Virus record (IMG/VR): IMGVR_UViG_3300042465_006773
Strand: one strand, 5' to 3'
Length of the DNA: 64,000 bases
From: a virus
Each line of letters begins with the position of its first letter. Position 1 is the stretch's first letter. Shown here piece by piece: positions 28,666 to 55,509 of the stretch. The position numbers and the translations under genes are program-made. Under the pieces are notes generated by a model. It saw only the letters and a program-made list of their open reading frames with translations. It ran no database searches and had not been told where the DNA came from.

Positions 28666-29292
28666 ATGGATATTAGAAATAAAATAAAAAAGAGTTTAGT
28701 TGAGGAGCGTCAACAAAAGTTAACCACGTCTTTGAATGAATTAGAAGACATTAGGGATGACAATTATTTTGTTGAAAAATACTTTTTAACTTGTTCTAAA
28801 TTATTGGAAGAAGGATATTCTTTGGAAGAAATTGAATCAACAGGAATAAAAGATAAATTAAATAGTATTGATTGGAAAGGAGCACTTTCCGATGCGGCAG
28901 TAAATTCAGGAAAAGAATATGCAATTAGGTTTATTTTAACCCAAGTTTTTAGTGTTGGTCCAAATGCCGCAACGTTTTTATCAAGAACACTTGCGGATAT
29001 GAATCCTTTAAATCTTATAAAAATATTCAAAGGACCCTCTGAATGTAATAGTGGTTTTCCTGAGATAGTTGATACTCTTTTAGAACAAGTGGTTAGATAT
29101 CTTGCTGCCGGTGCTACGGGTGTAGACTCCAATACATACGATTTAAATCCAATTAGAAATTTGGGACAAGGTGGTAATACTGCAATTAGAGATGTTGTAT
29201 CAACAACCGCAGGTAATTTGTTTGGTGAAATAATTAAAGAATCGGACTTAGGTGAAAAAATATCTAAAAGATTTTGTGAATTTATACATTGA
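28666..29292 (+). CDS. Hypothetical protein
   Basis: 208-aa ORF within the operon. Confidence 0.6.
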   Translation: MDIRNKIKKSLVEERQQKLTTSLNELEDIRDDNYFVEKYFLTCSKLLEEGYSLEEIESTGIKDKLNSIDWKGALSDAAVNSGKEYAIRFILTQVFSVGPNAATFLSRTLADMNPLNLIKIFKGPSECNSGFPEIVDTLLEQVVRYLAAGATGVDSNTYDLNPIRNLGQGGNTAIRDVVSTTAGNLFGEIIKESDLGEKISKRFCEFIH

Positions 29293-29293
29293 T

Positions 29294-30220
29294 ATGGAAC
29301 TTACGAAAAAACAAATATTAGAAATAACTAAAAGTAAGAAAAACGATTCTCACTTAAATGAGGGAATATTAGATACTGAAAACGTACTTTTAGCCGCGGG
29401 ATTCATACCTGTGATTGGTGAAATTGCGGATATCATTTCAATAATAAGATATATTATGAGGGGTGAACGTCTTAAAGCAGCTTTGACGTTGGTTGCATTA
29501 ATCCCCACAGTTGGTGATTTACTTGTTAAACCCATTTTATTCGCATTTAAAGGGGCACCAAAATTATTAACAACAGGTGGACCTAAGTTGGGTGAATACC
29601 TCGCTAAAAATCCGCAATTGGCCAATAAATTTAAAGATTTAGCACAATACGCTTCTGACCCAAGAGTAACTCAAACCGTGTCAAAAATATCAAATGTAAA
29701 CAAAGGATGGGGAAGAGGTTTACAAGGTGGTTTAGACACATTAAAAAATATATCGGTAAAATATACCGGTCAAGTTGGTAAAGGTTTAGAGGCGGGTGTT
29801 AAATCGTTATCTGCGGGTAAATCATTTGCGGGTGGTCTTAAAGGATATTTTCAAGGACAAAGACTATCAAAGTATTTTGCTAAAAATGGAATGTTACCAT
29901 CAAACGCATTATCAAGGTGGTGGCAAAATGTTTTAGCAAGAAGAGATAGAAGATTGGCGTTTTCTAAATTTTTAATTGCCAACAATTTATTGGGTAAATT
30001 TGGAATACCTAACATCGCTTCACTTGATAATTGGATGAAAGATGAGAATAACTTAAATAAATTAGCTGAAGACCCTACAACAAGTAATTTTATTGCCCAA
30101 AATTCAACCCCACAAGATTTTGGTGGGGGTCAACAACCATCTACCGATGATGGTGGAGGAATGTTAGGTGGTGCAATGAATTTATTTATGTTAAAATATT
30201 TAGCAAAATTTATTGCTTAA
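29294..30220 (+). CDS. Protein with pre-toxin TG-like hydrophobic hairpin (putative ejected protein)
   Basis: AAGFIPVIGEIAD...ALIPTVGDL repeated motif after LNEG; start taken at ATG 29294. Confidence 0.55.
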   Translation: MELTKKQILEITKSKKNDSHLNEGILDTENVLLAAGFIPVIGEIADIISIIRYIMRGERLKAALTLVALIPTVGDLLVKPILFAFKGAPKLLTTGGPKLGEYLAKNPQLANKFKDLAQYASDPRVTQTVSKISNVNKGWGRGLQGGLDTLKNISVKYTGQVGKGLEAGVKSLSAGKSFAGGLKGYFQGQRLSKYFAKNGMLPSNALSRWWQNVLARRDRRLAFSKFLIANNLLGKFGIPNIASLDNWMKDENNLNKLAEDPTTSNFIAQNSTPQDFGGGQQPSTDDGGGMLGGAMNLFMLKYLAKFIA

Positions 30221-30244
30221 AATTAAAATACGAAATATTTATGT

Positions 30245-30345
30245 TTAGAGTCAAATGGTTTGGTCACCATGAGATAATAAACTAATAAAACGAAAGGAGG
30301 GGTTCAATATCTCGGCAAAGGGGTCAATTTGACCCCTTTGTTCGT
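30245..30345 (+). ncRNA. Candidate small RNA A (extended Shine-Dalgarno in a loop)
   Basis: ATATTTAT at 30235-30242; hairpin ATGGT-TTGGTC-ACCAT; GAGATA/TATCTC stem enclosing GAAAGGAGGGGTTC; terminal hairpin CAAAGGGGTC-AATTT-GACCCCTTTG; no ORF >14 codons seen. Confidence 0.55.
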
Positions 30346-30370
30346 TTATGAGATATTGTGTACTTAAAAT

Positions 30371-30400
30371 AAAAAAACCCACCTTGTGAGTGGGTTTCTT
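30371..30400 (-). terminator. Intrinsic terminator downstream of tmRNA
   Basis: On minus: AAACCCAC-TCACAAG-GTGGGTTTTTTT. Confidence 0.8.
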
Positions 30401-30433
30401 TGTACTTATCGGAAAGTACAAAAAGTTAGCCAG

Positions 30434-30851
30434 TGGAGATGGGCGGAATTGAACCGCCGTCCACCCCGAGAAATCATAAATGGACTACATGCTTATTCAA
30501 TTAGTTCACAACTGACAAATAAATGGTTCCTATTTTGACATTGTTACCAATAACTGTGTCGAATTCACTTTTACCACTTTCGTGGATTTACAGGTAGTAC
30601 TCTGAACGAGACCCTTGACACTTTAGGTTGTATCACACCTTAAAGACTTCTGTTTCTAGGTTATTTGTCTCCCGACCCATTGATAGATTCGCCTAGGCTA
30701 CTGCTACCTTGGAAGAAGCGAGGATACCCGCAATTTCCATGTTGTTATAAACGTTGCCGCTTAATTTGTACCATCATTGATTATGGTCATAGATGATGTT
30801 TGACCGCATGCCCATTTAACATTTACACGTGTGTCGATTCCTTTCATCCCC
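30434..30851 (-). ncRNA. ssrA: tmRNA
   Basis: 5' GGGGATGAAAGGAATCGAC pairs with 3' CATCTCCA (G3-U70 Ala determinant); T-arm GGCGGTTCAATTCCGCC; tag ORF 30758-30693 = GNVYNNMEIAGILASSKVAVA*; CCA not encoded. Confidence 0.95.
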
Positions 30852-30855
30852 AAAA

Positions 30856-30866
30856 TTTCAAAGAAC
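30856..30866 (-). promoter_or_regulatory. boxA-like antitermination element in the tmRNA leader
   Basis: GTTCTTTGAAA 4 nt upstream of the mature 5' end; identical copy at 31825-31835. Confidence 0.6.
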
Positions 30867-30926
30867 AAAAAATTGTTATTTGTGATAAATATACGAAAAG
30901 TTTTCAATATTTCAAAAAAAATAGCA

Positions 30927-30954
30927 AAAAAAAAGGTTAGAATTTTCTAACCTT
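30927..30954 (-). terminator. Intrinsic terminator downstream of the giant ncRNA
   Basis: On minus: AAGGTTAGAAAATTCTAACCTTTTTTTT. Confidence 0.75.
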
Positions 30955-30966
30955 AATTAATTGTTG

Positions 30967-31814
30967 AGGGCCTTTCGACTCTTTGCTCCACCACTTGATT
31001 TTAAATCAAGAAAAAAAAAACACTGAGATTACATGTTTTATTAGTTGACTTTAAAAGGATTATTGTTTCCCTTTATATCCACAACCTTTTGAGTTGTACC
31101 AACCAGTGACGGCCAATTAGATTAACCAATCCTTGAGTCATCGGATACTCTCTCAATACTAATCACTCCTCGAGAATGCCTTCCCAATTAACCCTTGCGG
31201 GGTTAGAGGACTTTCTTAAAAATCGTATCGGGCTTGGGACCCTCTACGGCAATGAACGTTTCATTACTAAGTAGTCACCTGTTTCCGACGACTGATGAGC
31301 ACTTTTCCTTTTTATTAGATTTTGTTAATCAAAATAACAAGTTTTTTGGTTTGCGGATTATGAAGGTAGTGGCTCATCGACCAGCCATGTCATCTTTTGA
31401 ACAACACGATACTAAACTACCCTCTGAAATCTCCCGATTTCCATATTTTTGGACTCCTTCAAGAAAAGAACCTTGGTAGGTTCAAATCAAGGACAATAAC
31501 AGCACCACCTGTACAAAGTCATACCTTTCGGTTTTAAGATTCCCATCATATTGAATCACGCGATTACATAGTTGGATGACTATGTTTCTCACATAAATCC
31601 TACGAGTTATTCTTATTGGTGTTCCCACCTCAAATGAAGGACCCGCATCCCCCATTCGTTTTACCACTTTCACTACAGTGTCACCCTCGTTACTCAAGGT
31701 TAAACGATATCTCGTTTGTCTACTCGAGCTCTCTTTCGAAAGCCGCAACTCATCTAACCGAGTGAGTCACTTTATACCACTTTCGTGGTTTATTTAAGGA
31801 CCATAGACGGCCCT
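30967..31814 (-). ncRNA. ~850-nt giant structured ncRNA (GOLLD/ROOL-class candidate)
   Basis: No credible ORF, higher GC than flanks, ends pair (AGGGCC/GGCCCT), many GNRA-capped hairpins on minus (ACCAC-GAAA-GTGGT, ACC-GAAA-GGT, CCC-GCAA-GGG, GTC-GAAA-GGC), own promoter, boxA and terminator; lies between tmRNA and tRNAs. Confidence 0.8.
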
Positions 31815-31824
31815 ATTTTTAAAT

Positions 31825-31835
31825 TTTCAAAGAAC
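31825..31835 (-). promoter_or_regulatory. boxA-like element in the giant ncRNA leader
   Basis: GTTCTTTGAAA. Confidence 0.6.
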
Positions 31836-43048: not shown

Positions 43049-43086
43049 TTTATTTGTTTTTACAAATATACGAAAAAAAAACCAAT

Positions 43087-43115
43087 AAAAAACCCCCAAC
43101 GGAGAGTTGGGGGTC
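43087..43115 (-). terminator. Intrinsic terminator (end of sRNA B / clpC transcript)
   Basis: On minus: ACCCCCAAC-TCTCC-GTTGGGGGTTTTTT. Confidence 0.85.
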
Positions 43116-43180
43116 ATGGTCATTTTGTGGTTTCAACACCACTAACTAAAACGAGAGGAATCGGCAAAGATTTCCTATTT
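43087..43180 (-). ncRNA. Candidate small RNA B, complementary to sRNA A
   Basis: ATATTTAT at 43186-43193(-); hairpins AGGAAATC-TTTGCC-GATTCCT and GTGGT-GTTGAA-ACCAC; terminator; block complementarity to 30255-30320. Confidence 0.5.
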
Positions 43181-43220
43181 GATATATAAATATATATACT
43201 TTTACAAAAAGTCAAGGTAT

Positions 43221-50786: not shown

Positions 50787-50809
50787 TCCGTTTAAATGAC
50801 TAAAAAAAG

Positions 50810-50836
50810 AAAGGGGGACTTATGTCCCCTTTTTTT
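50810..50836 (+). terminator. Intrinsic terminator
   Basis: AAAGGGGGAC-TTAT-GTCCCCTTTTTTT. Confidence 0.8.
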
Positions 50837-50849
50837 ATATTTATATATA

Positions 50850-55410: not shown

Positions 55411-55509
55411 AACTTTTTTTTTAAAAATATACGAAAAAAATTTTAAATTATTAACATTATTTCATATATTTTATAAACACCATAAAAATATTATATATGA
55501 TAAATAATA

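Follow-up and report, generated by a model that had tools for sequence, protein, structure and literature searches.

Unit A and the island it carries

The 64,000-nucleotide stretch of viral DNA analysed here (IMG/VR record IMGVR_UViG_3300042465_006773, referred to below as the window) comes from a very large phage genome. The present analysis concerns unit A, a candidate small RNA of about 95 nucleotides (nt) encoded on its plus strand at 30250..30346, and the extended Shine-Dalgarno (SD)-like island GAAAGGAGGGGTTC that this unit carries at 30292..30305 (plus strand; core GAAAGGAGG, 30292-30300). Unit A was placed by covariance model R1 (106 bits) in a 210-nt gap which extends from the stop codon of the open reading frame (ORF) 29252-30220 to the 3' end of a convergent transfer-messenger RNA (tmRNA) gene at 30431..30851 (minus strand), a conserved neighbour that is considered here as context only. 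Upstream of the unit is the promoter-like element ATATTTAT (30235..30242, plus strand), which is invariant in all of the aligned homologues and has variable flanks; no canonical-start ORF was found in the unit itself. At least 14 transcription units of the window, among them the tmRNA gene, the terminase gene and a second candidate RNA, unit B, have a correctly oriented ATATTTAT 10-50 nt ahead of them, and the element is probably a phage promoter.

The predicted structure of unit A was evaluated over 25 distinct homologues, described below. Its first hairpin, P1 (30255..30270, plus strand; ATGGT/ACCAT), encloses the invariant loop region GGTTTGGTC and displays covariation, with four pairs of the extended stem changed on both sides. 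Pair 9-16 is UA in 13 cases and UG in 12, and many U.G pairs are seen in this stem, each of which would be a C.A on the opposite strand. An A-rich linker containing the SD-like island (30271..30313, plus strand) leads to an intrinsic terminator, P3 (GGCAAAGGGGTC/GACCCCTTTGTT and a U-tract; 30314-30347, plus strand), and the block TCGGCAAAG (30312-30320, plus strand), complementary to a loop of unit B, falls within the P3 region (30312..30347). In P3, 99.6% of the cells are paired and three pairs are changed on both sides; an outer helix of AACGA (30289-30293) with TCGTT (30342-30346) is 100% paired, with wobble-tolerant changes only. Over the whole unit, 94.8% of the cells in the 25 sequences were paired as compared to 89.2 +/- 0.7 in shuffles, changes on both sides were observed in 40 cells against 14.7 in shuffles, and slid controls were 38-60% paired; the folding z-score of the unit was -3.95. 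Since the U.G pairs in P1 and P3 are possible on the plus strand only, these data establish the plus strand as that of the RNA. An earlier reading of this DNA, made from the sequence alone (the sequence-only reading), had placed the island in a loop closed by GAGATA (30271-30276) and TATCTC (30308-30313). This stem is present in the window and covaries in some lineages (GAGATG/CATCTC, TAGATG/CATCTA); as a helix of the family it was rejected, with 62% of its cells paired in the 25 homologues.

A search of Rfam yielded nothing at the gathering threshold in 30221-30430, and at E values of up to 10 it returned, for 30150-30480, only sub-threshold leader and small RNA (sRNA) models that match terminators. 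A comparison with PeSL-like cassettes, in which a promoter and a stem-loop form the leader of a co-oriented downstream protein gene, showed no such gene at unit A: in the window and in six related loci, a tmRNA gene or a group I intron lies downstream in convergent orientation. The tmRNA unit of the window ends in a strong, bidirectional-looking terminator (AAAGAAACCCAC...GTGGGTTTTTTT, 30371-30401) positioned 25 nt from the end of the unit A terminator, so that the two convergent RNA genes are separated by terminators of their own. The promoter-like block, the intrinsic terminator, the lack of an ORF and the one-strand covariation together indicate, at the level of sequence, that A is an independent plus-strand sRNA gene.

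Conservation of the island and its fit to host 16S tails

A degenerate pattern shared by units A and B retrieved 51 IMG/VR loci, which were split into an A type and a B type. Covariance models for the two types (R1 for A, R2 for B), combined with a further pattern scan, gave 25 distinct A homologues, with R1 scores of 64-113 bits. The pattern CGAAAGGAGG...GGCAAAG proved too loose, returning mostly real SDs of unrelated phages and one new homologue (L108), and R1 matches of about 26 bits in several records were rejected as 3' ends of genes with terminators. Unit A was found only in records of the bS21-phage group, named for the ribosomal protein bS21 (gene rpsU). No A-like RNA was found in 101 Chitinophagaceae genomes searched, which is weak evidence, the filters having been strict.

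The sequence GAAAGG(A/G)GG was invariant in all 25 distinct homologues, the conservation of the SD block that the sequence-only reading had called for. It is the best-conserved portion of the single-stranded linker, which varies ahead of it and in the 5-8 nt behind it. The single A>G change in this core would still pair with U, as G.U. In most homologues the core is extended to AAAGGAGGTAT(T)CC; after GGAGG, the sequences read TATTCC or TATTCT, TATCCA, (T/A)TGTTC(C/A), TATC(A/T)AA, or GGT(T/C)CA. This last form is confined to the window and one other lineage, the GGGGTTC form is, on the homologues compared, specific to the lineage of the window, and the exact 18-mer of the window island had no match in viral contigs. 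The GTTC extension had been described as typical of the host lineage; this description did not survive the comparison, as the relatives have TATTCC, TATCCA or (T/A)TGTTCC at this position.

In the window, GAAAGGAGGGGTTC is the sole exact copy. Its matches with up to three mismatches (4 against 3.2 expected) and the AGGAGG hexamer (11 against 10.5 expected) both occur at chance frequency, so that the motif alone is not significant and its conservation in the relatives is what counts. When all 20-nt windows on both strands were examined for predicted binding to the 3' tail of 16S ribosomal RNA, the island ranked first with all three of the tail types described below, at -17.2, -21.1 and -21.6 kcal/mol (background, -3.5 +/- 2.5). 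The island is predicted to be accessible: the cost of opening was calculated at 2.6-6.3 kcal/mol, typically about 4, which leaves a net predicted pairing of -13 to -21 kcal/mol. The protein genes of the window are SD-less and A-rich at their starts, as first reported: GGAG, GAGG or AGGA was found at positions -20 to -4 in none of the 61 ORFs of at least 100 amino acids (aa), and A constitutes 46-64% of the bases at -16 to -2. The one strong SD-like hit, ahead of the terminase ORF (50804-50821), was rejected, being part of a terminator hairpin. That terminator (50804-50844, plus strand; AAAGGGGGAC-ttat-GTCCCCTTTTTTT) holds in its loop the first ATG of the listed terminase ORF (50822..), and thereby resembles an SD followed by a start codon; as ATATTTAT is located at 50837, past the loop ATG, the true terminase start must be further downstream.

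The sequence-only reading had also remarked that no start codon follows the island. Indeed, the window and all 25 homologues lack an ATG, GTG or TTG 4-12 nt past GGAGG, and the terminator comes next; neither does an rpsU ORF follow, the phage rpsU gene being 25 kb away and SD-less. One possible explanation for an SD in this position is that it serves initiation at an invariant AUC (30309..30311, plus strand) heading a frame of 6-7 codons (30309-30332 in the window), which would encode a 6-7-residue peptide (ISAKGS-like) or act as a start-and-stall element. The AUC lies 7-9 nt past GGAGG in 23 of the 25 homologues and 12 nt past it in L326; in L288 manual reading places the conserved ATC 7 nt away, the script having chosen an earlier ATCT. 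In 20 of the 25, an in-frame TAA or TAG is found in the terminator loop exactly six codons on, and the six-codon frame survives a 1-nt indel in the G-run of the L174/L321/L326 clade. We nevertheless give such a micro-ORF very little credence. AUC is a very poor initiation codon, and the frame measures 26 and 37 codons in two homologues and a single codon in another. Moreover, these nucleotides are under other constraints, namely the terminator stem, its fixed length together with a YUAAN loop, and the complementarity to unit B; their substitutions track stem pairing and not a codon pattern, and the stop at six codons may be a by-product of the fixed stem length.

The tails available to the island were surveyed in 301 genomes of the phylum Bacteroidota, in which three types were sampled, GGAATACC, GGAACACC and GGATCACC. 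A GGAACACCTCCTT tail was found in Bacteroidota genomes beside the GGAATACC and GGATCACC types, and the 16S gene ends in GGAATACCTCCTTTT in five named Chitinophagaceae genomes. The island is complementary to tails of the host lineage, as had been proposed, with the correction that the best-fitting tail for most of the A family is the Chitinophagaceae type, GGAAUACC, and not the Flavobacterium type. Against the Chitinophagaceae-type tail GGAAUACCUCCUUU, homologues are predicted to reach as many as 15 consecutive pairs. Five of them (L164, L168, L171, L286 and L332) read AAAGG(A/G)GGTATTCC; AAAGGAGGTATTCC, present in several homologues, is a perfect 14-nt complement of the Chitinophagaceae tail and, with one G.U, is predicted to form 15 consecutive pairs with the AAUA tail at -25.2 kcal/mol. 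A clade with GGAGG(T/A)TGTTC(C/A) fits the GGAACACC tail with one bulge (-25.7 kcal/mol for L174). For the window, the sequence-only reading had counted a match of 13/14 to the AACA-type tail. The arithmetic is right (9 base pairs (bp), a G.A mismatch and 4 bp; -21.1 kcal/mol), and the 'lineage-typical GTTC' on which part of the count relied is the portion that is not conserved. The observation of an extended SD-like island is confirmed, and the relatives bear it out more strongly than the window does.

Across many Flavobacteriales a strong SD is essentially confined to rpsU, where it forms 9-13 pairs with the tail (PMC9976891), and translation of rpsU is strictly dependent on the anti-SD (ASD) (PMC13000453). 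The 11-mer AAAGGAGGTAT is identical in the rpsU leaders of Chitinophagaceae, where it is the SD of rpsU, and in most A homologues; these leaders read ATACC-AAAGGA-GGTAT. All of the A variants were calculated to pair with Bacteroidota tails at -17 to -26 kcal/mol, as compared to -15 to -17 for host rpsU leaders. In L206, L209, L219 and other Chitinophagaceae rpsU loci, the extended SD is found about 25 nt before the ATG and is half-buried in a small hairpin, the 5' arm of which copies the 16S tail (AUACC) and looks like a built-in anti-SD mimic.

In the related phages unit A lies beside an RNA-gene island. The convergent neighbour is a tmRNA gene in L013, L032 and L108; in L016, L021, L047 and L051 a group I intron (1356-1568 in L016, 4864-5075 in L047) takes that position, again convergent with A. 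An alternative reading is that the region has no action in trans and constitutes the 3' untranslated region and terminator of gene 29252-30220. It might then be an attenuator, with the island and the 5' arm of the terminator competing for the 3' arm. Among the RNA-run records, in which 14 runs hold parts of 29800-31500, one 185-nt contig of depth 4 (30150-30324) runs from the end of the ORF into A, as would be expected of such a transcript. Judged by eye, the island can also pair with the 3' arm and U-tract of the terminator, through AACGAA/TTCGTT and AGGGGT/ACCCCT in the window and AGGAGGT/ACCTCTT in the relatives. However, the conserved ATATTTAT block stands between the ORF stop and A, and the sole relative found of the ORF protein (L002, 48% identity, no synteny downstream) has another gene next to it and no A, whereas A adjoins the RNA-gene island. 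The downstream neighbour is always convergent, so that a control of read-through would have no evident target, and both unit B and the match to the 16S tail would be left unexplained. We consider a purely cis-acting region very unlikely.

Unit B and its association with unit A and bS21

Unit B, the candidate partner RNA, is encoded at 43082..43185 (model R2, 110 bits) on the minus strand, opposite to that of A and about 12.8 kb from it. It is preceded by ATATTTAT (43186..43193, minus strand; conserved block ATATATATTTATAT), and comprises a pair of small hairpins as well as a terminator on the minus strand, which has a U-tract and a stem that covaries. Unit B was present in 30 of 33 and then in 8 of 14 related records searched, and is positioned about 11-13 kb from the phage rpsU gene in all records with both. 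The possibility that B is a plus-strand paralogue of A was rejected. Three wobble-type signals favoured that orientation (the fifth pair of hairpin 2, the middle pair of hairpin 1 and an A/G site), but the covarying terminator, with its G.U pair and U-tract, and ATATATATTTATAT are on the minus strand, and the blocks shared by the two units stand in different structural contexts.

Complementarity between the two units is extensive and involves three segments of B. The loop CUUUGCCGA is complementary to TCGGCAAAG of A; a second segment, UCCUCUCGUUUUAGUUAGU in the window and UCCU(C/U)UCGUUUU with a lineage-specific extension in the family, is complementary to the A-tract of A and to CGAAAGGA; and UGACC is complementary to the invariant P1 loop. 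In the window, A and B are the only carriers of both exact complementary blocks. The cognate duplexes were predicted at -41 to -56 kcal/mol as compared to about -33 +/- 5 for shuffled B, that is, 1.5 to 4.5 standard deviations (mostly 3-4) below the latter. The block-2 extension, though non-conserved, co-varies in A and B by lineage, reading ACTAA(C)T in the window, GACTA(A/T)A in the G012 clade, GAAAAAA in the G009/G353 clade and CTGG in G359, and at one position of block 3 the pair changes across clades from G-C through G.U to A-U. Our reading of these alignments is that A and B form a co-evolving sense/antisense pair; gene conversion between the A and B copies may have a share in the compensatory-looking changes. 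Uncompensated changes were also observed: an A.C mismatch inside ACGAAAGGA in the window, two mismatches in the covered part of G356 and two A.C mismatches in block 3 of G357. A cross-genome matrix of A and B duplexes revealed no cognate specificity, the blocks being conserved.

That B covers the island, as the sequence-only reading had it, is borne out insofar as B is a real family which is complementary to A and co-varies with it. In most lineages, though, B covers AAAACGAAAGG(A) and leaves the GGAGG(T) core uncovered, and it cannot explain the invariance of that core; to call B an 'off-switch' is a guess. These results bear directly on a rival explanation, namely that A and B constitute an ordinary sponge-type sense/antisense sRNA circuit with no role at the ribosome, the island being a seed or target for B or for another CU-rich RNA. 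The three colinear complementary blocks, the confinement of both exact blocks to A and B, the duplex energies below those of shuffled B, and the lineage-wise changes in blocks 2 and 3 are all as such a circuit would have them. Against it stand the core that is invariant yet uncovered by B, the uncompensated mismatches in the window, G356 and G357, and the match of the extension to 16S tails and host rpsU leaders, for which the circuit offers no explanation. We regard it as rather unlikely as an account of the island; it would, in any case, be compatible with a ribosome-directed role of A and does not exclude one.

A different explanation is that the island acts as a protein decoy: an SD/ASD-like helix, formed by the island alone or by its pairing to B or to the CCUCUUU-like 3' arm of the unit A terminator, would bind a protein, for example host or phage bS21. 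A precedent is found in the OLE RNA of Halalkalibacterium halodurans, in which bS21 binds an SD/ASD mimic, helix P6 (PMC12054373). The terminator stem of A (CAAAGGGGUC with GACCUCUUUG) and the A-B duplex resemble an SD-ASD helix, and the B of the G009 clade has ACCUC, which pairs with GAGGU of A. In Bacteroidia, however, unlike in Bacillota, bS21 holds the unpaired tail and clashes with an extended helix (PMC13000457), and B stops short of the GGAGG core in most lineages. This explanation appears to us quite improbable.

Units A and B were found together in 15 records and the window in a first set and in 8 of 9 records in a second, and all A records longer than 24 kb also hold B, with the exception of G360 (55 kb). 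bS21 was found in 26 of 30 and in 5 of 9 records searched. A, B and bS21 usually travel together and are not obligatorily linked. Among the records of interest in this respect are G357 (L325, L334) and G358 (L288, L335), fragments of 56-66 kb in which bS21 would be expected 11-12 kb from B, as in all other records. The A units of these two carry TCAACAAAG in place of TCGGCAAAG, a change which is not mirrored in B.

The rpsU gene of the phage (55213..55410, minus strand; bS21 of 65 aa) was recognised by a PF01165 match in G001, a near-identical IMG/VR fragment of 24 kb that spans B and bS21 and not A, and was mapped onto the window at 96.5% identity. Its leader is A-rich and SD-less, with CGTATATTTT upstream. 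A pattern-based search gave freshwater Chitinophagaceae as the closest cellular relatives of the phage bS21, which may be taken as a lead on host range and not as proof. A second promoter-like motif, TTTCGTATATTT(G/A/T), is located ahead of an AAA_33 kinase-like gene, the phage rpsU gene and the tmRNA gene (43053-43079, 55420-55445 and 30880-30900, respectively, minus strand), and is compatible with the Bacteroidota -7 element TAnnTTTG.

The window fits the group of freshwater Bacteroidota phages, of up to 331 kb, described by Chen et al. (PMC9723584), a paper in which tmRNA, sRNA and intergenic elements are not mentioned. It contains T4-type terminase, portal and prohead protease genes, a ClpC-like gene, four tRNA genes on the minus strand and a GOLLD RNA (31020-31424 by the Rfam model, minus strand). 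Metatranscriptome contigs from three studies cover GOLLD without a break between about 31020 and about 31800, and the depth is very high, the bin 31268-31834 reaching approximately 11,800 in one run; the depth of the tmRNA (30458-30798) was 15-57. As this coverage extends beyond the Rfam match, the full RNA should be about 800 nt in length.

Unit A as a possible mimic of the host rpsU initiation region

We propose that unit A is a start-less mimic of the host rpsU initiation region, which would pair with free 16S tails and interfere with bS21 autoregulation or with the occupancy of the ribosome by bS21; in our judgement this proposal has an even chance of being correct. We infer the transcription start of A, its binding to the ribosome and its physiological effect from sequence. 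The linker of A displays a start-less copy of the extended SD that is used before rpsU and, in many Bacteroidia hosts, almost only there. According to this proposal, A may then pair with the tail on subunits that are not locked by bS21, or displace bS21 as rpsU mRNA does in Flavobacterium johnsoniae. In that organism, cryo-electron microscopy demonstrated a 13-bp SD-ASD helix on rpsU mRNA that is sterically incompatible with bS21, and bS21 was lost from 65% of the wild-type complexes on this mRNA (PMC13000457). The incompatibility of a 13-bp helix with bound bS21 renders the proposed mechanism physically plausible, and in view of the published data on the rpsU SD and bS21, a start-less RNA with an equal or longer SD would be expected to compete for free tails and possibly to displace bS21. 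Since no start codon is found behind the island, a complex of A with the ribosome would be unproductive. As a decoy or competitor, A might disturb the autoregulatory loop of the host bS21 or its occupancy, while the phage would supply its own bS21 from an SD-less gene; B, which would pair with the flanks of the island, probably modulates A.

In a more elaborate scenario, the exchange of a ribosomal protein would be powered by the two RNAs acting together: B would strip A from the ribosome by strand displacement, and phage bS21 would re-lock the tail. B would start at the flanks it covers, namely the A-tract, the contact of its loop with TCGGCAAAG and the P1 loop. The freed tail would then be re-locked by an abundant, SD-independent phage bS21, leaving the ribosome pool in a phage-specific form. 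We view this scenario as improbable.

Several observations weigh against a role of A as an rpsU mimic. The case for ribosome binding is made by predictions of duplex formation and accessibility. The window form has its G.A mismatch against both the AACA and the AAUA tails, and hence a shorter continuous pairing than its relatives, and the TATCCA and GGTCCA variants fit none of the three sampled tail types exactly. Any 'tracking' of host tails by the island is hypothetical. In addition, the island and the 5' arm of the terminator are quasi-repeats, both of which can pair with the 3' arm, so that part of the conservation could serve an alternative fold. A decoy would also need to be abundant in order to matter, and the single contig over A provides no clear support for expression. 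In three metatranscriptomes no contig covered B, and the tmRNA and the GOLLD RNA of about 800 nt were present at high depth in the same three; assembled contigs of this kind show neither the strand nor the ends of a 95-nt RNA. Finally, G044 (92% complete) holds B and bS21 with no A even at E = 10, and G357 and G358 hold A and B with no bS21 where synteny predicts it. The strict three-part system of A, B and bS21 put forward by the sequence-only reading is not upheld by these genomes, and its interpretation as a whole is partly supported.

No description of such an RNA came up in full-text searches of the literature. The closest likeness is to the rpsU initiation region of Bacteroidia (PMC7797042, PMC9976891, PMC13000453, PMC13000457), which, like A, has a purine-rich extended SD with at least nine consecutive pairs to the tail, in hosts whose other genes are SD-less; the predicted pairing energy of A is in or beyond the rpsU range. 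Unlike that region, A has no start codon or rpsU ORF, ends in a terminator, and is phage-encoded as a transcription unit of its own; its action would be in trans, that of the rpsU leader being in cis. Helix P6 of OLE (PMC12054373) similarly belongs to a non-coding RNA which contains a copy of an SD/ASD element and is linked to bS21. OLE, however, is a cellular Bacillota RNA of about 600 nt in which both strands of the mimic form one helix and the ASD copy is the key one, whereas A offers the SD strand alone, in single-stranded form; the two share no homology in sequence or structure, and A has no Rfam match.

In its logic, A would resemble other regulatory decoys. 6S RNA is a mimic of the open promoter that traps RNA polymerase, and CsrB and RsmZ are mimics of mRNA leaders that trap CsrA. 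In these as in A, a stable non-coding RNA copies the recognition element of one or many natural ligands and occupies a machine unproductively; A would differ in that its target is the 16S tail, recognised by Watson-Crick pairing, and not a protein, in having a single site and in being phage-encoded. The pair formed by A and B may be compared to an sRNA and its sponge, such as prophage-encoded AgvB, which acts on GcvB in enterohaemorrhagic Escherichia coli. Both cases involve two trans-encoded sRNAs with extended complementarity, at least one of them phage-borne, but A and B are both phage genes, kept across many phage lineages, and one of them resembles a ribosome-binding site. RMF and its relatives are cell-encoded, stress-induced hibernation proteins that mask the anti-SD region. 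A would likewise obstruct the mRNA-docking platform or the 16S 3' tail, but as an RNA and not a protein.

In Bacteroidia the anti-SD of the ribosome is concealed, and in many of them essentially one gene, rpsU, is preceded by an SD; the structural basis of the autoregulatory loop that results was worked out only in 2020-2026. Should the link to the ribosome prove wrong, A and B would still be a well-conserved, co-evolving pair of phage sRNAs, in a phage group for which no small RNA has been described. If the proposal is correct, A would represent the first case of an RNA directed in trans at the 16S 3' tail, and a natural tool acting on ribosome composition; it would also help to explain why widespread giant lake phages carry bS21.

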